Positions 363 through 22,283 of a stretch of 64,000 bases of DNA are shown piece after piece. The translations under genes and the position numbers were made by a program. The stretch comes from a phage. The stretch is from the sequence record OZ346212.1; one strand, 5' to 3'. Each line of letters begins with the position of its first letter. The first letter of the stretch is position 1. The notes beneath the pieces were generated by a model. It ran no database searches. It saw only the letters and a program-made list of their open reading frames with translations, and was not told where the DNA came from.

Positions 363-1049
363 ATGGCAGAGATTAAGTCGGATGTTAACCACATCCACAC
401 TCTGCCAGATTTTGTTCAGGGAGGTCTTGACTACCTGCCTGGAGATTTTCTGGCTGAGAAGGTTAATTTAGTCACATTCTTAACCGTATACCTTAAAAGG
501 TTGGAGGATGTTGATAAGATGCTGGTAGGTTTGGCTGAAGGAAGATTGCTTAACAATGCCAGCGGAAGATACCTTGACGAAGTTGGTAATCAACTTGGTA
601 TTCTTAGGAATGGACTTTCAGATGCTGATTTTCGTGCCACACTAATTATTCAGCAGGCCGCAGCATCAAGGGGCGGGACTCGCGAAGATGTCATCTCCAC
701 CTTGCGACAATTGTTCGGAAGAGACAATTTCGATACGTGGAAAGGAGACAACTTCAGGTTTGACATAAATATTAGAAAAACTTGCTTTGACATATTGCAG
801 TCTATCGATCAGATCTTAGATATGCTACCATTGCCTTGTCATTTGCGTCTTACAGAATCGCAAGGGCAAGCTTTTGGTTTTGAAGGGGACTCTACAGCTC
901 TTGGCTTCGGATCAGTATGGGAAGAAAACCAGTTTGGAGTTGGTGGACTGGCTACTTTGCTGTATGTTCCTGACGTAAGACCTGATTGGGACACCACAAC
1001 CATTTATTGTGAAAGTATTACAGTAAACGCAACTAGACAGGAGGGTTAA
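363..1049 (+). CDS. putative baseplate/tail structural protein (228 aa)
   Basis: ORF in structural operon, start 11 nt after previous stop, stop overlaps next start (TAATG). Confidence 0.6.
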   Translation: MAEIKSDVNHIHTLPDFVQGGLDYLPGDFLAEKVNLVTFLTVYLKRLEDVDKMLVGLAEGRLLNNASGRYLDEVGNQLGILRNGLSDADFRATLIIQQAAASRGGTREDVISTLRQLFGRDNFDTWKGDNFRFDINIRKTCFDILQSIDQILDMLPLPCHLRLTESQGQAFGFEGDSTALGFGSVWEENQFGVGGLATLLYVPDVRPDWDTTTIYCESITVNATRQEG

Positions 1050-2767
1050 TGGCAACAGCTGTTTTTAAACCTTACCGTGATTACTCTACAATGGCTGCAC
1101 GGTTTCATTACCGAACAGTTCAGGATACTGCCGTTCCTGGTAGGGATTATGATCATGTTGAGGGCGATGTAACTATCCCAGTTGGGGCAACCAGTATTGA
1201 GATCCCCGTGGAAATTGTTGACAAATTACCCAACAGGTTGCCAAGAAGCTTCTTTATGGAGTTTTCATCAAAATCTCAAGGGGTGATGATTGGAACACAA
1301 AGGGCGAAATGTACAATAGTTTCAGATGAGAATCTTGACAGGATATCTTGGGATACTGTTGAGGAGAGAATGTTTCACCCAAGATATTGGGTTACAACCA
1401 CTCAGCAGACTGAAAGTACCTGTATTGTTGCAGATAACAACTGTTGTATTAACCGTTTAGTGTCAAGAACATATGGAGGTATGGCTGGGTGCATTTGGGA
1501 AACAGTTGACAAGTATGACCATTTCGGTATTGGGTTTGATGATCACTATGAGATGAGAAACACCAAGCTTTGGTTCAGAATGTCAATAACCAACGCCAGC
1601 AACTTCTCCACTCCTGAAAAGATGATTATGACTGTAGACCTTGTTGATGGCACAATCATCTATGTTCCTTTAGCTCAATATGCTGTCAGCATCTCAGAGG
1701 ATAAGAATGTTGCAGAAATTCATATTGATTTTGAGGACTGCGTCGGGATGGACCAGAACAACAACATGATGGGTGTTGATCCTCGGCAGGTGAGAAGGAT
1801 TTTAATACCGCTTATGCCTAAAGACTGGGTAAGTAATAGCACAGACCCGAGAACGGAAAATGTAAAGTGTGAGTTGCGCCTAGATCTGCTTCAGCCAGAC
1901 ACAGGCTGGAAAATGATGCAACTTAACAATATCCAGGTGAGAGAGCACGATGTTGGGATCTGCACCGCATATGACGATATGTGGAACGTGTCTCCTTTAA
2001 GGGTGTTGAACAATATCAAGCGTCTGGGCTATACCGGAACCATAAACCATTATGTTGGTATGAGTCATTATTATGACTACACATGGTCAGGAACCCAATG
2101 GTCTATAAACAGAACAGGAGCGCTAAACGCTGCAGCTTATAAATGGCATGATGATTTTATGTACAATGCCAAACGACATAACTTCGACGTTATGCAATCT
2201 GTAAGTTTTGAGCTTTTCAGCGATGCCTGCCCGTTGGAATGGACCCAAAGAGACTGGAACGATAACTACGCTAAAACAGGGTATACACCTTGTAGCTACC
2301 TCCTGTCTCCAACCATTGAAGAGGGTATGAATTTCCTTACTGCAGTATTTAAGAATTTTGCATCAGCCGCTATGAGAAACAACCTGCCAGTGATTATGCA
2401 GGTTGGTGAACCGTGGTGGTGGTACAATACCGATACTCGTAGACCTTGTATTTATGATTACCCTACAAAACAGGCGTTTTATGATGAGACAGGCGAGTAT
2501 GCATTAGATATTGGGACTATTGACGATCCTAAAACTGGCGGTGTTTACGATAAGTATGTAGCATTTTGTCGTGGTAAGCTTGGCGCTCGTATTGCGGCTA
2601 TTTCAAAGGCAATAAAGGCACACGCTGCATCAGCTCAGATGACAGCTCTGCTGTTTTCCCAACCATTATGGAAACCGAGCTTACGCAAAAGCTTAACCTT
2701 GCTGACCAATATAAAAAGGAAGCAGGTGCTCTTGATTTCTTCTGCACCGAGTGCTACGATTGGGTGA
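1049..2767 (+). CDS. putative tail fiber / baseplate-attached protein (572 aa)
   Basis: Large ORF translationally coupled to upstream gene; N-terminal stretch DYDHVEGDVTIPVGATSIEIPVEIVD resembles a Calx-beta-like beta-sandwich motif; position equivalent to fiber gene after baseplate genes. Confidence 0.65.
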   Translation: MATAVFKPYRDYSTMAARFHYRTVQDTAVPGRDYDHVEGDVTIPVGATSIEIPVEIVDKLPNRLPRSFFMEFSSKSQGVMIGTQRAKCTIVSDENLDRISWDTVEERMFHPRYWVTTTQQTESTCIVADNNCCINRLVSRTYGGMAGCIWETVDKYDHFGIGFDDHYEMRNTKLWFRMSITNASNFSTPEKMIMTVDLVDGTIIYVPLAQYAVSISEDKNVAEIHIDFEDCVGMDQNNNMMGVDPRQVRRILIPLMPKDWVSNSTDPRTENVKCELRLDLLQPDTGWKMMQLNNIQVREHDVGICTAYDDMWNVSPLRVLNNIKRLGYTGTINHYVGMSHYYDYTWSGTQWSINRTGALNAAAYKWHDDFMYNAKRHNFDVMQSVSFELFSDACPLEWTQRDWNDNYAKTGYTPCSYLLSPTIEEGMNFLTAVFKNFASAAMRNNLPVIMQVGEPWWWYNTDTRRPCIYDYPTKQAFYDETGEYALDIGTIDDPKTGGVYDKYVAFCRGKLGARIAAISKAIKAHAASAQMTALLFSQPLWKPSLRKSLTLLTNIKRKQVLLISSAPSATIG

Positions 2768-3120
2768 TGCAGGGAGGTATTGAAAAGGCAAAAGAGTCTG
2801 TAAACATACCTATCGTTAAGTTAGGTTGGCAACCGTCTGAAATACAATACCTTGCAGGGTTCGTTCCTAGTAAAGAGCTTGCTCCGGTATATGGCTACGA
2901 CCCAACCAGGAATTACCAAGAATTTTTATGGAGATGTATCTGCGGAAACATGGCAACCATAGAGTATAGATACCCTGAGGTAAAACAGTATGTGTGGGCA
3001 TACCCGCAAGTAATGTCTGACAGCATCACTGTTACAGCCAGAGATTCTACCGTGCTTCATATGGGGCAGGTTGCTCTGAAAGGGTATGTAGAAGATGTTG
3101 TCCCTCCAGACTTCTCATAA
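2767..3120 (+). CDS. hypothetical structural-module protein (118 aa; alternative start 2668 gives 150 aa)
   Basis: ATG at 2767 overlaps the TGA of upstream gene (TGATG); track ORF 2668..3120 would overlap upstream gene by 100 nt. Confidence 0.5.
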   Translation: MQGGIEKAKESVNIPIVKLGWQPSEIQYLAGFVPSKELAPVYGYDPTRNYQEFLWRCICGNMATIEYRYPEVKQYVWAYPQVMSDSITVTARDSTVLHMGQVALKGYVEDVVPPDFS

Positions 3121-3132
3121 TCAGGAGATAAA

Positions 3133-4173
3133 ATGTCAAAACCTAGTTTTCCATTAGAGATTTGGGCAGAGGAGGATCAGGTTCTGCCTAACACCCACAG
3201 ACAGAACAGGCTACGCCCGATCGATGATTTGTGGAGAAAAGGTTGGGATCTTGGTCAAAAGCCATCCTGTGAAGAACTTAACTATATTTTCAATATGCTC
3301 GGAACTTGGGCAAAATACATTGCTGACGAGCAGATCCCCGCTCAAGAAGGCCGTTATCTGGTACGTGATAATAACTTGAGCGATCTTTTGAACATCCCTG
3401 TTGCCCGTAGAAACCTTGGGATTATCACTAAGGAAGAGGCAGACGCCAGGTATGTAAAAGTTACAGGTGATACAATGACAGGCCCCTTGGGGTTGCAACG
3501 TATCAACTTTAAAGCTGCCGAGACAGATAAGGCTTGGATAGAGACAACTATTGGCCCAGATAAGACAACTCTCGACTTTGGGTTAAGTGATAATACCGGG
3601 TCGTTTGATGATGGTGGTACATCTACAGTGGATGCGTTTCGTTGGAGATTCCAGCCAACTCAGCCGGATATTAATCCAGAGTTCACTTTGATGTACCTTA
3701 ACGCGATCACGGCTAATCGTGCGCTGTTGAAAGTGGTAGGCAATGTTGAAGTTGTCGATAACATGAGGTGCAATAACCTTACTATCAGCAATACAGCAAC
3801 ATTCACCAACTGTAATGTGGCTAGTCAGTTGACGGCTGGGTCAGTATATGTTAATGGTGGTGCAAGTTGTGACAGTATGGTTGTAAGAAGCCAGCACTGT
3901 GTTGTCGGTAACAGAAATGTGGTGCGCTCCGTGAATGGAGTGACGGCTAACGGTAACGGTGATGTAACGATCACTATCCCGCAGACAGGTGTGCAAGACA
4001 TCAGAATCGGTGCAAGACTTGTGGACGGCGTTTCTGAATCTCCAATCCGCAACGGCTACGTTGTCACAGGCTGGCATTTCGGTGACAAAAAAGAGATGCG
4101 TGGTTCAACCTACTGGGCAGGACCCTTACAAAAACTTGTAAATGGTCAATGGATCACTGTTAATTATGCATAG
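3133..4173 (+). CDS. tail fiber / receptor-binding protein, paralog A (346 aa)
   Basis: SD AGGAGA upstream; N-terminus PLEIWAEEDQVL and C-terminus YWAGPLQKLVNGQWITVNYA shared with ORF 5186..6229, central region divergent; GDTMTGPL fiber-like motif. Confidence 0.8.
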   Translation: MSKPSFPLEIWAEEDQVLPNTHRQNRLRPIDDLWRKGWDLGQKPSCEELNYIFNMLGTWAKYIADEQIPAQEGRYLVRDNNLSDLLNIPVARRNLGIITKEEADARYVKVTGDTMTGPLGLQRINFKAAETDKAWIETTIGPDKTTLDFGLSDNTGSFDDGGTSTVDAFRWRFQPTQPDINPEFTLMYLNAITANRALLKVVGNVEVVDNMRCNNLTISNTATFTNCNVASQLTAGSVYVNGGASCDSMVVRSQHCVVGNRNVVRSVNGVTANGNGDVTITIPQTGVQDIRIGARLVDGVSESPIRNGYVVTGWHFGDKKEMRGSTYWAGPLQKLVNGQWITVNYA

Positions 4174-4187
4174 ATCGGAGGGCTAGC

Positions 4188-4772
4188 ATGAAAATACTTC
4201 AAGAGTTTAAACTTTACCAACCAGGATCTGGCGAATACCACTCCAACAAGGAAACCAAGGAGCTGACCCCTCAAGAGGTAGAGGATTACACCGCATACAC
4301 TGGGTATTTTTTACGTAATGATGATGGTGATTGGTATGTGCAGTCACGAACATTACGACAAGAAAATCCAGGGTGTATCTTCCTACTTGTTGACGAGAAG
4401 GGAATTCTTAAGACATCTACAGAAGAACCTGATGCCTTATGGCCTGCTCCAGGTCTTCGTGTGGTTATCGCCAAAAAAGAAGAGGTACCAGAAAACATTA
4501 TGCTTCACCACGACGCTTTGCGTTTAGTTGGTGATGAATTTGTCACAGACAATGAATTCTTTGTTCAACAGGCAGAGGGTGTCATAGAGACAGAACTTGC
4601 TTGGGCTACTGCTAGAATTGGTGCCTATCAAGACATGATTGACCTTGAATATGATCTTACTGATGACCAGAAACGTAACATCAGAGATTTGAAAATGTAC
4701 AGGGTAAAACTTCTTGAAATAGATACATCTAAAGCCCCTGACATTTTCTTCCCAGAGCGACCTACCCTCTAA
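4188..4772 (+). CDS. tail fiber assembly chaperone (Tfa-like, 194 aa)
   Basis: C-terminal segment ...DLTDDQKRNIRDLKMYRVKLLEIDTSKAPDIFFPERP matches the conserved C-terminus of caudoviral tail fiber assembly proteins; lies immediately downstream of a fiber gene. Confidence 0.75.
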   Translation: MKILQEFKLYQPGSGEYHSNKETKELTPQEVEDYTAYTGYFLRNDDGDWYVQSRTLRQENPGCIFLLVDEKGILKTSTEEPDALWPAPGLRVVIAKKEEVPENIMLHHDALRLVGDEFVTDNEFFVQQAEGVIETELAWATARIGAYQDMIDLEYDLTDDQKRNIRDLKMYRVKLLEIDTSKAPDIFFPERPTL

Positions 4773-4783
4773 GAGGAGGTGTT

Positions 4784-5098
4784 GTGGAGTTGGATTTGGC
4801 GGCATTGTACGGTATCTGCATGGGTACCGTTGTCCCGATCTGTGTATGGGCTTTCAACCAGTGGCACACCAAATGGAAAGACATTTCCAAGAGGTTGGAT
4901 GAGCTGGAGAAAGACCTCATCTTAGTGAAAAACAGTATGGTTACAAAAGATAAACTTGATTCCGTTATAGAGACCCGGTTAAGCAAGCTAGAGGCCGATA
5001 TTAACGACCTTAAGCAGGATGTCAGGACAGATGTCTCCGGCATCAGAGCCGATGTACAAAAGATTTTGCACATGCTCGTAGAGCATAGTAAAAGGTAA
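4784..5098 (+). CDS. hypothetical protein with N-terminal hydrophobic segment and coiled-coil (104 aa, GTG start)
   Basis: ORF preceded by GAGGAGG; start codon uncertain (GTG 4784 or TTG 4790). Confidence 0.5.
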   Translation: MELDLAALYGICMGTVVPICVWAFNQWHTKWKDISKRLDELEKDLILVKNSMVTKDKLDSVIETRLSKLEADINDLKQDVRTDVSGIRADVQKILHMLVEHSKR

Positions 5099-5125
5099 AC
5101 AAAGGTCAGAACGGAAAGGACTCCT

Positions 5126-5154
5126 CTTGCATTTTGTTCCCTAAAGTGTTAAAA
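5126..5154 (+). promoter_or_regulatory. sigma70-like promoter (TTGCAT-N17-TAAAAT)
   Basis: -35 TTGCAT at 5126, 17-nt spacer, -10 TAAAAT at 5149, followed by SD and ATG 5186. Confidence 0.5.
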
Positions 5155-5185
5155 TAGTCCTAAGGAATTTTCTCAGGAGAACGTG

Positions 5186-6229
5186 ATGACTAAACCAGTT
5201 ATCCCTCTTGATATTTGGGCCAATCAGGATGTTGTGCTTGAAAATACGGGAGAGTTGAATAAGTCTCAACCAAAAAAAGAAGAGAGATTGAAAGGTTGGG
5301 ATATGACACAAAGAGTGGCATGTGAAGTTGTTAACTTTGAACTTCACATGCTTTCTGCGTGGTTAAAGCATTTAACAGAAGATGTTGTCCCAGGATGGGA
5401 TAATAGATTCTTAAGGGTCACTAATAATCTAGCAGACGTTCCAGACAAAGCTGCTGCACGTCAAGTTCTCAATGTATACTCGCCTGAAGAAATGGACGAT
5501 CTGTATGTTGACAAGTCTGGAGACATAATGACTCAGACTCAAACTTTAGGCCTTCAAAGAATCGAGTTTGCATCTGCGTCAACAGACAATGCGGCAATAT
5601 ATACCACCATAACTCCAGACAAGACGACGATGGACTTCTGGATTATGGACAACATCGGTGGTGCTGACGGCACAGACCTTGATGATCCTTCTCACCAAAT
5701 AGACGGGTTCCGTTGGAGATTTCAACCTTCTGGTGGGCAGCCTGTGTTTTCGGCTATGAAGCTCAATGCTATAACTGCCAACCGTGCAAGACTGGCTATC
5801 CAAGGAAATCTTGAATGCAACGATGCAAAAAGTTCCTCTGCAAATGCCAATGCGGTCACGATACCAAGAGCCACTGTTAACGGACAACAATCCTGCGGAA
5901 GCGCTCAAATAGGTGGAAGAGTTGATTGTAACGATGAAACCGTTAGAGGCCAATATGCAACCGTTGGTGGAAGAAACGTGGTCCGCAGGGTAAACGGTAA
6001 CAGCGCAGACGGTAGTGGTAACCTTACTGTCCCTATGCCCAGTAGAGGGGTTGACGATGTAAGGATAGCGAACCGTTTCAAAACCACCTACAGAGAGTCA
6101 AGGGTCTACCCTGGACATGTGATGTGCTCTGGTAACTACGCTTATAAACACCCTTATCAAGGTGATTACTGGACAGGTGCTATCCAAAAACTTGTAAACG
6201 GTCAATGGATCACTATATCTTATGCTTAA
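5186..6229 (+). CDS. tail fiber / receptor-binding protein, paralog B (347 aa)
   Basis: ATG 5186 preferred over GTG 5183 by alignment with paralog A (MTKPVIPLDIW vs MSKPSFPLEIW); conserved C-terminus YWTGAIQKLVNGQWITISYA. Confidence 0.8.
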   Translation: MTKPVIPLDIWANQDVVLENTGELNKSQPKKEERLKGWDMTQRVACEVVNFELHMLSAWLKHLTEDVVPGWDNRFLRVTNNLADVPDKAAARQVLNVYSPEEMDDLYVDKSGDIMTQTQTLGLQRIEFASASTDNAAIYTTITPDKTTMDFWIMDNIGGADGTDLDDPSHQIDGFRWRFQPSGGQPVFSAMKLNAITANRARLAIQGNLECNDAKSSSANANAVTIPRATVNGQQSCGSAQIGGRVDCNDETVRGQYATVGGRNVVRRVNGNSADGSGNLTVPMPSRGVDDVRIANRFKTTYRESRVYPGHVMCSGNYAYKHPYQGDYWTGAIQKLVNGQWITISYA

Positions 6230-6240
6230 AAAGAGGGTAA

Positions 6241-6507
6241 ATGAAACTAACTCAGTTTTTATGGGGACTGGTTGCGGAATCTGATGACCCTACGAAAGTA
6301 TCCCAATCTAAGCTATGGTCGAACATAGGCATGGTGGTGATGACTGGGGTGTTTATTCATATGGGGTATAATGATACGCTTCCTGAATGGTATGCGTGGA
6401 TATATGCACCTTCAGTAGCCTGCCCCCAGCTTATTAGCAAATTCATCTCGCTCCGGTGGGGTTGCCAGCACCCTGACCACGTTAAAAACGAAGAGCAAAA
6501 AGCTTAA
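6241..6507 (+). CDS. hypothetical small protein with hydrophobic segments (88 aa), accessory gene downstream of fiber paralog B
   Basis: ORF with SD AAGAGGG upstream, 11 nt after fiber gene stop. Confidence 0.55.
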   Translation: MKLTQFLWGLVAESDDPTKVSQSKLWSNIGMVVMTGVFIHMGYNDTLPEWYAWIYAPSVACPQLISKFISLRWGCQHPDHVKNEEQKA

Positions 6508-6516
6508 GGAGAAATC

Positions 6517-8262
6517 ATGGCGCAAGACATGACAAGCTTCGAGCAGGCGGTAGATCAAGTAATTGTTGATTCTGAACGTTTGCACTTGATTGTCAACGGT
6601 AACGCTGTGGATGAAGTTGTCGTAGAGGATGGGACCACTATCCCTACGGTACGAAAAGCCATGCTTGACACCCTTTATTTTAAAACGCCACCAATCCCTT
6701 GGGCGTATGGTGCATCCACAACAGTTTTTAACCAGTTGTATGAGTTTAAAGGGGATACAGGCACTCAGTGGTGGTACGCCCCAGCAGCATCAAAATCTAA
6801 CCCGGTTAGAATGCCAGCAGATCCTTCACAATCTCCAAACTGGAGATTATACACCGACTCTGCAGTAATGGCAAAATACTACGCAAAACTTAACAGCCCA
6901 AGGTTCGAAGGTGACCCGCGAGTACCTACACCTCCAATGGACGATAAGTCAGAGTCCATAGCAAACACAGAGTTTGTTGTTGACTATGTTGATAGCATAT
7001 TTAAAGCCATGGAGGGGATGAAAGTTACTGTAGGATCTTTGGTGGTAAAAGGTCTTACAGAACTCGCTAACACTATAGTTGGTGGCACCCTTACCTTACA
7101 TGGACCTGTTAATGGGGCAGATTCTACTGCACGCTTTAGGAATCTAATCCTCACGGCAAATACTTCTACACTTACTTTTGCGTGGAGCGATCCTAAGCAT
7201 GCAGACTGGAGAAGTACAGAGCTGCAACCTCATGAAGTGTCCACCCACAGGGTTATAGCTGACACTATAACTTCTGGGAAACCAGTGGCTAATAATAACG
7301 ATGTGCATTTTGATGGTCTGGGTAATAACTTTTTTGACTACGTGTACATTCGTGGTAATGCCATGAAGGCAGCAACCGAACCGACATTGCAGGTAGATGG
7401 GACCACCAGGGTTAAGAACCTTGAGGTGACAGGTACCGTTACAGGGATAACATACTCTGTCGATGGCACCATGATCTACCCTAGCTATATTGAAAGCACT
7501 GGTGATGCATTGATAAATGGCGATTTGGAGGTTGGCGGGTCTGTAGTTATTCGAGGTACGGCCTCTATCCAAAACATAGCTCTGAATACCTTAAGAGTCA
7601 ATGAGCGTGCAACTTTTGAAGGAGAAGGGCTTACAGCCAACAAAGGTGTAATTACCGAGCTGACAACAACCACTTTAACTGCAACAGCTGCAAACTCTGA
7701 AAACTGCAACGTTACCCGCAACTTGCAGGTAAATGGAGATGTCAGTTTAAACGCAGCAGGGCCTGGCACCACCTCTGTTCACAACCTTGAAATATCCGGC
7801 ACGGTGACTGGGTGGTTGCCTGACTTCTCTAATGTCACCTTTGTCTGTAATGGCATTAACTCCAGTGGCAAGATAACCACCTCTCAAGAAATTGAGGCGG
7901 GTAAAACCATTACTGCCCCTACTTTCCACGCAGGAAAGGTAGATTTTGATTTAGAGGAGGTTGACGCGTCCAGTGGGACATGGACACCTAACGGGCAGGC
8001 CAGTATGTATGTTGTTCACGCGAAAGGGGATTTTACAATAGGACAGTGGCCTGGGACATCAGCGGAAGATAAACCTTATCCATTCACTGCGGTTATCTAT
8101 GTAATTCAGGATGCTGTAGGTCACAACGTGACTTTGCACGATAAGTATGCTATCCTGTCGGCAACACCTGTTATTAACAACAAGGCTAACAGTGTTACCT
8201 TGCTGCAATTAACGTATTGTGGTGTTGGTGATATCGTAGACGTAGTAATTGCACAACGTTAA
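6517..8262 (+). CDS. putative tail fiber protein (581 aa)
   Basis: SD AAGGAGA upstream; large ORF in structural operon, Thr/Gly/Asn/Val-rich composition typical of fiber shafts. Confidence 0.7.
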   Translation: MAQDMTSFEQAVDQVIVDSERLHLIVNGNAVDEVVVEDGTTIPTVRKAMLDTLYFKTPPIPWAYGASTTVFNQLYEFKGDTGTQWWYAPAASKSNPVRMPADPSQSPNWRLYTDSAVMAKYYAKLNSPRFEGDPRVPTPPMDDKSESIANTEFVVDYVDSIFKAMEGMKVTVGSLVVKGLTELANTIVGGTLTLHGPVNGADSTARFRNLILTANTSTLTFAWSDPKHADWRSTELQPHEVSTHRVIADTITSGKPVANNNDVHFDGLGNNFFDYVYIRGNAMKAATEPTLQVDGTTRVKNLEVTGTVTGITYSVDGTMIYPSYIESTGDALINGDLEVGGSVVIRGTASIQNIALNTLRVNERATFEGEGLTANKGVITELTTTTLTATAANSENCNVTRNLQVNGDVSLNAAGPGTTSVHNLEISGTVTGWLPDFSNVTFVCNGINSSGKITTSQEIEAGKTITAPTFHAGKVDFDLEEVDASSGTWTPNGQASMYVVHAKGDFTIGQWPGTSAEDKPYPFTAVIYVIQDAVGHNVTLHDKYAILSATPVINNKANSVTLLQLTYCGVGDIVDVVIAQR

Positions 8263-8271
8263 TATATCTAA

Positions 8272-8298
8272 CCGCTCCTGACGGGGCGGTTTTCTTAT
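8272..8298 (+). terminator. rho-independent terminator
   Basis: Hairpin CCGCTCC-tgac-GGGGCGG followed by TTTTCTTAT. Confidence 0.6.
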
Positions 8299-8310
8299 CT
8301 GGAGAACACA

Positions 8311-11300
8311 ATGCTTCCAATCCCTTTGCTAAAACTTGGTCGTCATTTCCTCGATAAGAGGGGTGGAATTAAGGAACTTGCTGTTCTGTCATACCCAATA
8401 GACAACAGTGATGGTACAAGCAACACAGTATCCTATGTAAATAGCTTAGCTATACTTTTTGATGATGGTCAGCTTAATATTACTGGCTATAACAAGTTCG
8501 GAGAGTGCCGCACTGGGGATCGTAGCCCTATAAACTATCCGAGCGAAACAGCCTGGAATGTTGATCATGTGTGGAGAGCAGACCGCGCGTTTGTGATCCG
8601 GACTTTTGATAACCAGTTTTTCTACATCGGCTGCACTGCAGGTCTTATCGGATCCACTGCGGCAGGCGGTAATGATGTTTGCGTAAACGAGTGGACACCA
8701 CTCCCAGAGCAGATTGTTAAAGGATTGCACCTTGACACCCACCCAGAACGCCTTATTGAGGTGATGGGCGGTATTAACAACACTGTCTGGGTTATTGCAG
8801 AGGCAGAAGGTACTGGCATACTTAACCTGTATGGATCTGGTAACAACACCTACGGATCTTTGCATGTAGATAAAAATCAGCATGCAACCCCTGTAAAGAT
8901 TGGTGAGACATCGGAAAATCCTGAAACAGGCCCTTGGAAAAACCCAAGCATCAACTGTGAGGTGCATGACAACTCTGTTATTTTCGGTGGTCCTAGGGGT
9001 TTCTGGATTGCTGGATACGACTTTCTGAGAAATAACAGTAGAAACGACCTTGTTTGGCCTCCTGTGCAGATTACTCGTAACGATTTGAGGGGCATTCCTG
9101 CAGATGAGGAGTGGAAAGGGTTTATGTGTGGTCCTAACGGGGCAGTAATTGCTACACAGAGGATGCATAGACCCGATGACCAGCAGCTTGTTAACGTATT
9201 TTATGGTCAAAACATTTGGGGAGATGATACATGGCGGGAACTGAATATCACCTACACCCATGAGGTAATGATGGCTCGTGGGTACGGCACAAGTGGCATT
9301 TTCTTCAATAATGGCACTAAGCAGTATCGTGGGTTCTCTCGCAACTTATGTAATGATATTGGTGCACAATCTGCAAACAATAGTCCTAGGGCCGATTTTA
9401 TCCACTATCAAGCTCTTGCTACAGCTAAATATGTTGAGCAACGCCTGCCAGTCAGCTGGACAGAGAGTGTTTATTTCCAAGGCATCCACAGAGAAGGTTT
9501 CTTAGGGACCTTTACTGTTGTTAATGGTAAACTTTGGTGGTCAGGTATCCCAAGGGGAAGTTTTACAGGCTCTAATAACCTGTTTGGCGGCAGACTTAAT
9601 AGTCAGGGGTTCACAGAGGTTCCTGAGAATTGGTATAAAAATGTCCCAGTAGACAGTTGGGGCGTTGATGATATTTTCGACGTTAATGGTGTTAGCAGTG
9701 TTAGCAATATCTACATTGGTGACACGGTCAAGATGAAATTGAAGCCTCAGCCAGAGGGAGCTACGTTCATCATTGACAAGATTGAACTGGTGAATGCTGC
9801 AGGTACGGTTGTTACAGATGCAAATTACCAATTCTCCACCAACTGGAACCACGGCGGGGCCAACGAAGTTGTTGTTACCCAGTATAACAGAAATGTTAAC
9901 AGACGTGGCCTGTACTCTGTAAAAATAACCTATCATGACAAGCATGGCACAGGCAGAACTCACACGACAAGGACTTTGAACTGGAACACCATAGTTCCTG
10001 CGTATCCGTCCAACGGCAAGTGGCATACCGTTGGTAGAAACAAGCAGTTCCATGTTAACGATACTGTATACTTTGGGCTGAATGGGACCCAGCCTGCAGT
10101 AGAAGGGGATACATCGTATATGGTCAGACTCCACAGAATGGATGCTGGATCAGTCACTTATGATGTGACCCAAGAGATCTACGATCAAAGACGCGCCACG
10201 TATGACAATATTGTGAAAACACAAGCCTTGTGGGAGTTCAATCCTAATGGCAAGGGTGGTAAAATGTTGCAGGTTAATGAGCAGAACGGAACGTCGTTGA
10301 CTGTTCACGAACACCCAGACCCTTGGCCTGATCCTGGAAAACCTCACCCGGGAGCTCGTACACTGAAAATTGTCAGCCATGATGCAGGATATTTCGGAAT
10401 ACGCTGGGAAGCTACAGTAAGATATGTCGACGGGACAACAAACAACATAGGGATTACACTTGGCGGCACTAGTGAAGATAGCTCGCTGAAAATTGCCTAC
10501 ACGCCCAGAGGTATCTCTATTGATAATATGGATGTTGTTCGCAATGGTTACGGCGATGTGAATGTCAAAGTTACTCTTGGCGAACATCTTGGTGGGGAAA
10601 GGATCATCATGTATGCCTTTGATCATGATCCACGCACCAATGGAACTTATGCAAATCAGGCATGGAGTTACCTGATAAATGCACCTGAGCCGAATACTAA
10701 AGAGTTCTACTATGGCATGAAGCGAGATGTGTGCAAGAAAACAGGAACACATGACTGGATTGCTATCTGCGTTAAAGATGAGCGCACAGCTTGGGATGAG
10801 CCTGTTAACAGATGGTTCATAGGTATTCCTACCAGAAGTGATAAGTATGTCGCAGAATATATTGTATGCATGGGCGGTACCAACCTAAACATGTGTTGGA
10901 ACGAAGATGTAAACAAATACTCTGATTATGACTATATGAGGGATTACTCTTGTAATTTGTGGTTTAACCAAACTACAGGTTACCCTCCAAGACAGGCGAG
11001 AGTAAACCCTGCAATCTTCACAGACACGCAGGTTTTCTTGACAAAACAGGCCAACGAGGTTCAGACCTTCAAGAATAAATACGATCCTAACAAGTGGTTC
11101 TACAACTGTTACGGCGCATTTTTCTGGGGACCTGGTGAGTTACCTGGTGGTGGATCTTGCTTGAATGAGGCAACTTACGCAAGTGACTACATCATGGGGC
11201 AGGTCAAGAAGTATAAGATAATCCCCGGTCCTGAGACTTTGGGCAATGCCGTTGACCCTTATATCATCATGACTGCACTGAGATCAAACATGGATGGGAC

Positions 11301-22008: not shown

Positions 22009-22283
22009 CTATGATGAAGGCATGTGGTAATGTATATTACGTCGGTGAACATGTTCAGGCAGACAGTGTGTGGAAATCTATTAAGTCCACCACTGACGAT
22101 GCCCTTCTGAGTGGACTATGTTTCCCCAATCCGGGAGACATCCTCCCTCATCCTGGAGATTTTGTTGTCAACAAGATGGACGGTTATACCGTGTGCCTGA
22201 TGGTTGAAAAAATCTTTTTAGACACTAGACACAATCACCGTCTTGTGTTAAAATTTCAAGAATGTAAAATGACAATTGCCTAA
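22005..22283 (+). CDS. hypothetical protein (92 aa)
   Basis: ORF overlapping upstream stop (ATGA), SD GAGGG. Confidence 0.6.
   Translation: MTMMKACGNVYYVGEHVQADSVWKSIKSTTDDALLSGLCFPNPGDILPHPGDFVVNKMDGYTVCLMVEKIFLDTRHNHRLVLKFQECKMTIA

Follow-up and report, generated by a model that had tools for sequence, protein, structure and literature searches.

Two old tandem short tail fibre paralogs with a single Tfa-type chaperone gene in an rV5-like phage of E. coli

Results and discussion

Identity and organization of the locus

The two fibre genes described here, A and B, are old tandem paralogs of a single fibre family that also includes phi92 gp147, the phiTE short tail fibre and Mu gpS, and they form the short-tail-fibre locus of rV5-like phages. 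They were found in the window, i.e. the whole stretch of 64,000 nucleotides of record OZ346212.1 that was analysed. The locus as a whole probably combines two kinds of short tail fibre, a Tfa chaperone shared by both, a promoter preceding B and a cluster of small genes older than B.

The window belongs to a Vequintavirus (an rV5-like myophage of E. coli), was 99.6% identical to phages naswa and magaca, and displayed 97.9% DNA identity to rV5 over the fibre region. A, the Tfa gene and B are the same genes as rV5 gp33, gp32 and gp30, with no essential difference. The feature is thus real but ordinary, and the locus itself is no new discovery: a pair of paralogous short tail fibres, accompanied by one Tfa chaperone, had already been described (Kropinski 2013, PMC3606486; Maffei 2021, PMC8594841), the rV5 paralogs being reported as 42.3% identical and suggested to recognise two LPS chemotypes (PMC3606486, PMC8594841). 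Likewise, curated records of related Vequintavirus genomes name two of these genes "short tail fiber protein" and the third "tail fiber chaperone". Neither paper mentions where gp29 and gp31 came from, that the promoter is conserved, that docking residues of B have changed or that tips were homogenised in a sister lineage. The points that are new here are minor ones, namely an A-type tip on both paralogs of that sister lineage, a near-identical stretch of 30 nt and five changes in the docking domain of B.

The features of the locus are given below; the positions of A, the Tfa gene, B and the 88-aa open reading frame were as in the preliminary description, which had been made from the window's letters and its reading frames.

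3133..4173, plus strand: short tail fibre paralog A, ortholog of rV5 gp33, 346 aa (ORF; 99.7-100% identity to genes annotated "short tail fiber" in rV5-like phages)
3997..4170, plus strand: A-type tip module, residues 289-346, from the VQDIR motif (homology to the Mu gpS C-terminal receptor-binding domain)
4129..4158, plus strand: 30-nt core encoding QKLVNGQWIT in A (direct repeat with 6185-6214)
4188..4772, plus strand: tail fibre assembly chaperone Tfa, ortholog of rV5 gp32, 194 aa (Pfam Caudo_TAP, PHROG 136)
4784..5098, plus strand: 104-aa protein, ortholog of rV5 gp31 (ORF; orthologs in single-fibre relatives)
5127..5156, plus strand: internal promoter-like element, TTGCAT-N17-TAAAAT with a TGn extended -10 (cross-lineage conservation)
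5176..5180, plus strand: Shine-Dalgarno AGGAG, 5 nt upstream of the B start codon (sequence; phage Murica has an RBS annotation at the corresponding position)
5186..6229, plus strand: short tail fibre paralog B, ortholog of rV5 gp30, 347 aa (ORF; PHROG 4465; domain order as in A)
6056..6226, plus strand: B-type tip module, residues 291-347 (shares 43% of its residues with the A-type tip)
6185..6214, plus strand: 30-nt core encoding QKLVNGQWIT in B (direct repeat with 4129-4158)
6241..6507, plus strand: 88-aa small membrane-type protein, ortholog of rV5 gp29 (PHROG 1322)
6517..8262, plus strand: lateral tail fibre, ortholog of rV5 gp28, 581 aa (Pfam Phage_phiTE_241_N/C on its orthologs)
8270-8291: terminator-like hairpin, before which the gp28 ortholog is the last gene

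B was read as 347 residues from its ATG, an in-frame GTG at 5183 being too close to the AGGAG.

Paralogy of the two fibres

A and B aligned from end to end at 43% identity (BLASTP, E 2e-95), and both matched PHROG 4465 over its entire length (E 1.8e-171 for A and 5.4e-166 for B). The shared termini that had first drawn attention to the pair were recovered, the first 20 residues being 60% identical and the last 21 codons 80% identical at the nucleotide level; a repeat search returned a direct repeat of 62 nt at 81%. Yet the two proteins do not diverge in between, nor do they carry swapped central domains as had been proposed, since their centres are homologous throughout. Identity peaked internally at 60-70% (residues ~119-150, 185-205 and 251-275) and fell to 20-30% at residues 51-90, 205-250 and 291-330, the most divergent stretch being the sub-terminal receptor-binding tip. 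AlphaFold2 monomer models, used only for comparing the order of secondary-structure elements, displayed the same order in A and B at low confidence (pLDDT 63 and 59, pTM ~0.3). A Foldseek search of the PDB with the low-confidence model of A gave nothing below E 0.5.

At the N-terminus, residues 1-108 of A and 1-83 of B matched the phiTE short tail fibre 9cuy (E 1.4e-19 and 2e-8, respectively), and the family profile matched its docking domain with E 1.9e-34. Residues 3-92 of 9cuy form the joint onto wedge protein 1. By homology, residues 1-108 of A thus constitute a baseplate-wedge docking domain; after it come the shaft and, at the C-terminus, the tip. This places the fibres among the phiTE/phi92-type short tail fibres (PHROG 4465), with their N-terminal docking domain of about 90-110 residues. 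Gene order agreed for A, which lies directly 3' of the wedge genes, apart from an inserted gp34, and is followed by the Tfa gene; B lies after gp31 without a Tfa gene of its own and does not follow the wedge-then-Tfa order. The same wedge-docking N-terminus is found in phi92 gp147 (fibre III), in phiTE and in the single fibres of Seunavirus and Mydovirus, where the neighbourhood is also alike (wedge genes, fibre, Tfa, gp31-like gene). These phages have one short-fibre copy, in contrast to the two in the window, and the flagellotropic phiTE differs further by the coiled-coil and Ig-rich body of its fibre. Identity to single-copy fibres amounted to 42-47% for A and 37-40% for B.

Receptor-binding tips and the Tfa chaperone

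The C-terminus of A alone matched Mu gpS (5yvq, E 1.7e-6), and positions 284-347 of the family profile aligned with residues 438-503 of Mu gpS (E 1e-12; 9.7e-13), the profile also matching the Mu S/S' chimera 8ju3 (E 4.5e-6). B alone gave no match to Mu gpS at E<1 in the PDB sequence search; its tip owes its place among the Mu gpS-type tips (C-terminal domains of ~60 residues) solely to its being alignable with A and with the family. Across the whole family the tip formed a hypervariable block, and tip types recurred on near-identical shafts. Each tip type was more conserved than its shaft. The B-type tip was 93% conserved between the window and the L009 lineage. In the L013/L023 sister lineage the B body displayed an A-type tip, so that A-type tips occurred on both paralogs, with a module boundary at the tip start (VQDIR motif), as in the window. 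These alignments identify the ~58-residue C-terminal tip as the module that is exchanged among the members of the family. Since both paralogs of L013/L023 have the same tip type, a different receptor specificity cannot be the only reason why both copies were kept.

The closest parallel is the S/S'-U/U' system of Mu, with its homologous C-terminal tip: in both, two alternative tips, LPS-binding in Mu and probably so in the window, share a common fibre design and come with a Tfa-type chaperone. The differences are that the Mu tips lie on the invertible G segment whereas the window's genes are in direct orientation without inversion, that both fibres of the window are made at once as complete genes with one chaperone instead of two, and that their N-terminal docking domain is of the phiTE/phi92 and not of the Mu type. 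An invertible host-range switch such as the Mu G or P1 C segment was considered and rejected: both genes are on the plus strand, the only inverted repeat at the locus was a chance-level match of 14 nt, and no invertase was found among the neighbouring genes.

The resemblance to T4 gp12, which forms baseplate fibres with the LPS core as their terminal receptor, is a functional analogy. The chaperone of T4 gp12 is gp57A, unlike the Tfa-type chaperone of the window. Homology to gp12 was not recovered, no gp12 chain being present among the PDB matches (single sequences at E ≤ 1, profile at E ≤ 0.01); an HHpred similarity to gp12 was reported by Kropinski et al. (PMC3606486). The genus depends on the LPS core, with waaC, waaF and waaG being needed (PMC7229145, PMC8594841). 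Against two modes of binding, Maffei et al. allowed for a single secondary receptor common to all of these phages (PMC8594841).

Near its end, each tip is encoded by a stretch that is nearly identical between the copies. The 30 nt coding for QKLVNGQWIT were identical at 29/30 positions between A and B of the window, at 26-30/30 in eleven genomes and at 23/30 in L013, compared with ~52% nucleotide identity elsewhere in the genes (phage Aya, L015, was left out because its B gene was not located by the start-motif search). Two synonymous changes of the L009 clade, GTA>GTC and CAA>CAG, were common to the cores of both paralogs. This final strand is kept identical in A and B, even at synonymous sites.

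The gene after A had been described as encoding a Tfa-type chaperone, and profile searches agreed: its product matched Pfam Caudo_TAP (PF02413) over residues 121-192 with 45.7 bits (cut-off 22.1; E 9e-12) as well as PHROG 136 (E 2e-36), and its orthologs in Bas48 and rV5 are annotated as tail fiber chaperones. The locus has no other Tfa gene, and the product of this one most likely folds both tips. Service of two tips only 43% identical by one Tfa is not guaranteed, since in Mu each alternative tip, S or S', has its own chaperone, U or U'.

Small genes and a probable promoter flanking B

The preliminary description paired each fibre with an accessory gene of its own, the Tfa gene for A and the 88-aa protein (gp29) for B, and overlooked the 104-aa reading frame of gp31 between the Tfa gene and B. 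This pairing does not hold. Orthologs of gp31 (same length, 32-33% identity) and of gp29 (53-57% identity, directly upstream of the gp28-like fibre) occurred at the same relative positions in the single-fibre relatives 4MG, SSE121 and Seu621, so that neither gene is tied to B, and gp31 is no accessory of a fibre either. There, the gp31- and gp29-like genes flank a gene for a 157-aa membrane protein, which is absent from Vequintavirus. The gp31 ortholog has a coiled coil and is hydrophobic in an N-terminal segment. As for gp29, which had been called hydrophobic, it matched PHROG 1322 "membrane protein" (E 5.6e-32) but is only moderately hydrophobic, with no 19-residue Kyte-Doolittle window above 1.4. 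From this comparison of gene orders, gp31 and gp29 are taken to predate B. They are part of an older cluster of three membrane-protein genes in which B, together with its promoter-bearing spacer, occupies the place of the middle, 157-aa gene.

The promoter noticed before B looks real; its two hexamers and their spacer span 5127-5155, with TG ahead of the -10. Its hexamers and spacing were invariant in rV5, L009 and L013, three diverged lineages, while the spacer sequence varied; the element was unique in the window, also matched the rV5 "late" motif TGTTAAAATA and coincided with a PhagePromoter annotation in phage Gotham. A sigma-70 consensus scan did not list it (its -35 hexamer matches at 3/6 positions), and as the scan returned a number of sites at shuffle level, cross-lineage conservation was used instead. 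Judging from that conservation, B would be read both from upstream transcription and from this internal promoter.

Two probable kinds of fibre on one virion

Each fibre is thus composed of three parts. An N-terminal domain of ~100 residues, by which in phiTE a trimer is plugged into the wedge of the baseplate, leads into a shaft, and the shaft into ~58 residues that form a tip like that of Mu gpS. As the two fibres differ most inside the tip, the virion most likely displays two downward-pointing fibre kinds, each of which would have its own mode of binding to the LPS core. The presence of two receptor-binding fibre paralogs on one virion, as first suggested for this window, is also the most likely reading of the total-virion proteomics of rV5, where gp30, gp33 and the chaperone gp32 were all detected (PMC3606486).

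Alternatively, the paralogs may have been kept mainly for different attachment sites or geometries in the baseplate or fibre network and not for their tips, B having a docking partner different from the wedge site to which A and the single fibres of relatives attach. We regard this as possible, though on the unlikely side. Its main argument lies in P19, I30, W34, G41 and Y51, which all three B lineages have replaced, although conservation of each reaches 90% or more throughout the rest of the family, the distant phiTE included; the A clade displayed one change at such conserved residues and the single-copy fibres none, and all five fall in the segment forming the wedge joint in phiTE. The limited number of sites in phi92 (one fibre-III site per wedge, six in all) points the same way, as does L013/L023, where both bodies persist with one tip type. 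Yet the N-terminus of B is still clearly homologous to the docking domain (see above), no second docking protein was identified, and low-resolution cryo-EM of Bas49 and Bas54 was modelled with a single short-fibre density.

The single site per wedge in phi92 and phiTE could equally mean that A and B compete for six wedge sites and end up as a random mixture on each virion, with the internal promoter setting the ratio. The docking-domain fold common to both proteins and the conserved extra promoter of B are in line with this, but the docking residues that changed in B alone, conserved as they are elsewhere, speak against the two interfaces being identical. We give this competition the same rather low probability as the separate attachment sites.

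Age and selection of the two copies

A and B were 95-100% conserved and intact in ~116 Vequintavirus genomes, and neither stops nor frameshifts occurred in any genome examined. Both count as functional and are under strong purifying selection, with dN/dS of 0.02 (A) and 0.06 (B) against rV5, the only comparison for which it is given, dS being saturated between the window and the two deeper lineages. In those lineages, L009-L012 and L013/L023-L026, the tandem order A-B was kept, making three lineages in all. A and B clustered together in a neighbour-joining tree, although weakly (65% bootstrap), and duplication within the lineage was favoured on these comparisons.

The recently exchanged, or horizontally acquired, specificity cassette envisaged in the preliminary description hardly fits these figures. 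B does have a moron-like look, with its promoter-bearing spacer in place of another gene of the relatives, and tip modules do move in this fibre family. However, no relative of B above 60% identity was found outside the genus, and an arrangement fixed across these genomes and in two deeper lineages with saturated synonymous sites, together with the clustering of A and B, makes a recent origin very improbable. Equally remote are a redundant or decaying copy, the degradation that the preliminary description had raised and a pseudogene reading both being countered by the dN/dS values and intact frames, and co-assembly of A and B as heterotrimers, for which the conserved N- and C-termini might in principle serve as nuclei but which was rejected because four shaft indels of 2-6 residues would break the register of a mixed trimer.

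Conclusions

The preferred reading remains that of two old fibre paralogs that probably share one chaperone. Beyond it we tentatively propose, without giving it better than a minor chance, that B evolved a different attachment interface, so that rV5-like baseplates would carry two structurally distinct short-fibre sets, and that one chaperone serves both through short-tract gene conversion, which would keep the terminal strand (and the whole tip in one lineage) identical. If true, two bodies would be kept independently of tip specificity.

Phages of the rV5 type are often considered for the therapy and biocontrol of pathogenic E. coli. Although the terminal receptor step is assigned to the short fibres, no one has yet told apart the roles of A and B. 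The locus offers handles for engineering, deletion or swapping: the last ~58 residues from the VQDIR motif as exchangeable unit, the chaperone probably shared by both fibres, and the altered docking domain of B.

Identity of the locus

The window belongs to an rV5-like myophage of genus Vequintavirus. Nucleotide comparison of positions 2600-8400 matched 118 phage records, 111 of which displayed at least 80% query coverage and 90-99.6% identity; phages naswa and magaca were the closest (99.6%), and rV5 was 97.9% identical. The locus was already known, being the rV5 locus described by Kropinski et al. (PMC3606486) and Maffei et al. (PMC8594841). ORFs were matched to those of the curated Bas48 record of the BASEL collection and of the RefSeq entry for rV5.

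Genes of the locus, as named in the Bas48 and rV5 records
3133-4173, + strand: A, 'short tail fiber protein' (rV5 gp33)
4188-4772, + strand: 'tail fiber chaperone' (Tfa, gp32)
4784-5098, + strand: 104-aa hypothetical protein (gp31), absent from the preliminary description
5186-6229, + strand: B, second 'short tail fiber protein' (gp30)
6241-6507, + strand: 88-aa 'membrane protein' (gp29)
6517-8262, + strand: lateral tail fibre (gp28)

The preliminary description of this feature was right as to its existence and location, and partly misread its details. The Tfa-type chaperone that it placed after A was recovered (Caudo_TAP, 45.7 bits for a cut-off of 22.1; PHROG 136, E 2e-36). B starts at the ATG at 5186, five bases 3' of AGGAG.

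Records named after Campylobacter (16-21, e.g. A13b, A12a and D1, with C. jejuni as stated host) shared 98-99.7% identity with the present E. coli phage locus and are probably Vequintavirus contaminants or mislabelled. The rV5 gp34 ortholog (1049-3120), a lateral fibre of 690 aa carrying NCTSP_N and TIM-barrel domains, was broken in the window: loss of one nucleotide at about 2653, where a T-run reads TTTT instead of the TTTTT of rV5 and Bas48, leaves the ORFs 1049-2767 and 2668-3120. This deletion was shared by none of the 68 phage records that matched and was the one gap in the best match (98.4%); either the homopolymer was misread in sequencing or the strain has a frameshift of its own.

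Two full-length paralogs with different tips

Sequence comparison shows A (346 aa) and B (347 aa) to be full-length fibre paralogs: the docking domain is common to both, the shafts are homologous, and the Mu-S-like tips differ. Their similarity at both ends, as initially proposed, was confirmed by sliding-window analysis, with identity peaks over the first 20 residues (about 60%) and the last 20. The supposed divergence in between was not, since BLASTP paired them end to end (43% identity, 59% positives, E 2e-95), and further peaks occurred at residues 119-150 (65-70%), 185-205 and 251-275, between troughs of 20-30% at 51-90, 205-250 and 291-330. Likewise, both proteins covered PHROG 4465 ('tail fiber protein') from first to last profile position, and the order of helices and strands was equal in their AF2 monomer models, both of low confidence. 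These results show that there are no swapped central domains as given in the preliminary description. Four indels in the shaft disfavour mixed A/B trimers, so each paralog would form homotrimers.

Over their N-terminal 80-110 residues, both paralogs showed homology with the phiTE (Pectobacterium phage) short tail fibre (PDB 9cuy; E 1.4e-19 for A, 2e-8 for B and 1.9e-34 for the family profile), whose residues 3-92 form a trimeric joint on wedge protein 1 in cryo-EM (PMC11972413). The phi92 ortholog gp147, or 'fibre III', occurs as six downward-pointing trimers hung from wedge protein gp145 (PMC13450770). For the last 60 residues or so, homology was with the C-terminal domain of the Mu tail fibre, protein S (5yvq residues 438-503; E 1.7e-6 with A alone, 9.7e-13 with the family profile), and the profile also matched a Mu S/S' chimera.

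An alignment of 32 family members displayed four blocks: a conserved docking domain, a shaft that closes with the motif VVGGRNVVRSVNG..ADGNGN, a hypervariable block some 40 residues long and a conserved strand QKLVNGxW. Near-identical shafts bore distinct, recurring versions of the hypervariable block, which makes the sub-terminal tip, and not the centre, the exchangeable module of the family. This tip was also where A and B differed most. In its working the locus is like the alternative tips S and S' of Mu in hard-wired form. An inversion switch was ruled out, since A and B point the same way and no inverted repeat other than one of 14 nt was present. T4 gp12 is a functional analogue; PDB sequence searches with A, B and the family profile recovered no sequence link to it.

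Age and conservation of the pair

A and B were both intact in about 116 Vequintavirus records (two places per record, 95-100% protein identity), neither copy being degraded, whereas every other genus of the phage collection had a single copy. Values of dN/dS against rV5 were 0.02 for A and 0.06 for B. Two deeper lineages, represented by metagenomic contigs, kept the six-gene order, one (L009-L012) with 87% (A) and 78% (B) identity to the window proteins, the other (L013 and L023-L026, genome-sized contigs) with 73% and 46%. A recent exchange of the specificity cassette in this lineage, as suggested earlier, does not fit these results. A neighbour-joining tree grouped the A and B clades with a bootstrap of only 65%. 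A was closer to single-copy fibres (42-47% identity, versus 37-40% for B) and retained the ancestral position beside the Tfa gene.

Tip exchange, shared core and docking changes

For three details, namely a tip exchange onto the B body, a shared 30-nt core and docking changes in B, no mention was found in published work on the locus. Firstly, in the L013/L023 lineage a B-type body (47-49% identity to B, 39-43% to A, B-specific N-terminal signature present) bore an A-type tip, 88-93% identical to the A tip of its own genome and only 34-38% to B-type tips. Body and tip join at the VQDIR motif, at about residue 288, and Mu gpS homology starts at this point. Tips have thus been homogenised between paralogs at least once, in a lineage still carrying both bodies.

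Secondly, the 30-nt core that codes for QKLVNGQWIT (A, 4129-4158; B, 6185-6214) was identical at 29 of 30 positions in the window, at 26-30 in eleven genomes and at 23 in L013, against about 52% A/B nucleotide identity outside this core. In the L009 clade, synonymous changes GTA>GTC and CAA>CAG were common to both paralogs; three coincident changes have a roughly estimated p of ~0.01. The pattern suggests, but does not prove, short-tract gene conversion or nucleotide-level constraint. In a subgroup of Vequintavirus genomes, phages HMD-6, S127 BCL3 and ECP32 (L016, L017 and L018), B alone displayed QKFVNGQWIT; apart from this residue, 336, no position of the terminal strand was seen to vary.

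Thirdly, five N-terminal residues (P19, I30, W34, G41 and Y51), whose conservation in the rest of the family, phiTE included, is 90% or more, were replaced in all three B lineages. Such changes numbered one in the A clade and none in single-copy fibres.

Neighbouring small genes

In the single-fibre relatives compared (Seunavirus 4MG and SSE121, Mydovirus Seu621), the wedge genes were followed by those for the short fibre and Tfa; genes for a protein of 104 aa, a polytopic membrane protein of 157 aa and a protein of 89-91 aa came next, ahead of a gp28-like fibre. The 104-aa protein is the gp31 ortholog (32-33% identity, equal length) and the 89-91-aa protein that of gp29 (53-57%). The 88-aa protein therefore belongs to an older conserved cluster and is no accessory of B. 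The locus contains one Tfa gene, and B lacks a separate chaperone gene. The 157-aa gene occurred in 107 phage records and was not found in Vequintavirus among the records searched. Its start is overlapped by the 104-aa gene in the three relatives, leaving no intergenic spacer. In Vequintavirus, which has lost this middle gene and kept the outer two, its slot is thus filled by an 87-nt promoter-bearing spacer and B.

Single-fibre Vequintavirinae display a conserved cluster of small membrane-type genes, three in number, directly 3' of the fibre and Tfa genes, coding for a 104-aa protein (one hydrophobic segment and a coiled coil), the 157-aa protein and one of about 89 aa. Their position beside receptor-binding genes could fit a role in superinfection exclusion or lysis.

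Three-gene cluster in comparison genomes and its remainder in the window
L006, 6650-7719: three genes
L007, 6536-7609: three genes
L008, 6686-7755: three genes
Window, 4784-5098 and 6241-6507, + strand: outer two genes

Promoter-like element upstream of B

The promoter proposed before B was supported. The element, TTGCAT (5127-5132), 17 nt and TAAAAT (5150-5155) with TG ahead of the -10, also agreed with the rV5 'late' motif TggTAaAAtA (PMC3606486) and was the sole such site within 64 kb. A simple consensus scan did not list it because its -35 hexamer matches consensus at only 3/6 positions. Both hexamers and their spacing were invariant in rV5 and the two deeper lineages while spacer and flanks varied, which is good comparative evidence for a functional promoter. 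Further TGnTAAAAT extended -10-like motifs at 22246, 39589, 39913, 51203 and 63152 (+ strand), ahead of ORFs with good ribosome-binding sites, suggest a recurrent promoter type in the genome; among these motifs, only the 5147 site had the TTGCAT hexamer. A small hairpin (TCCTAAGGAATTTTCTCAGGA, 5158-5178), called on the opposite strand by a terminator scan, lies between promoter and B start; its 3' arm runs into the Shine-Dalgarno sequence (AGGAG), and it may modulate translation of B.

Proposed arrangement on the virion

Virions of rV5 contain gp30, gp32 and gp33 (PMC3606486). Baseplates of Bas49 and Bas54 displayed short-fibre density with a Mu-like tip at 7-9.5 A, a resolution that cannot separate the paralogs. 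A possible, rather doubtful arrangement would place A and B at different sites instead of sharing the six wedge sites; it is favoured by the changed docking residues of B and by the retention of both bodies where tips are alike. The single Tfa would fold both tips via the conserved terminal strand. The genus depends on an LPS core that extends to the first glucose of the outer core (PMC7229145, PMC8594841). Variable positions made up 12-15% within each tip type and 21-33% in the shaft, and this stronger conservation of the tip fits a conserved glycan target; the two tips would contact the LPS core differently.
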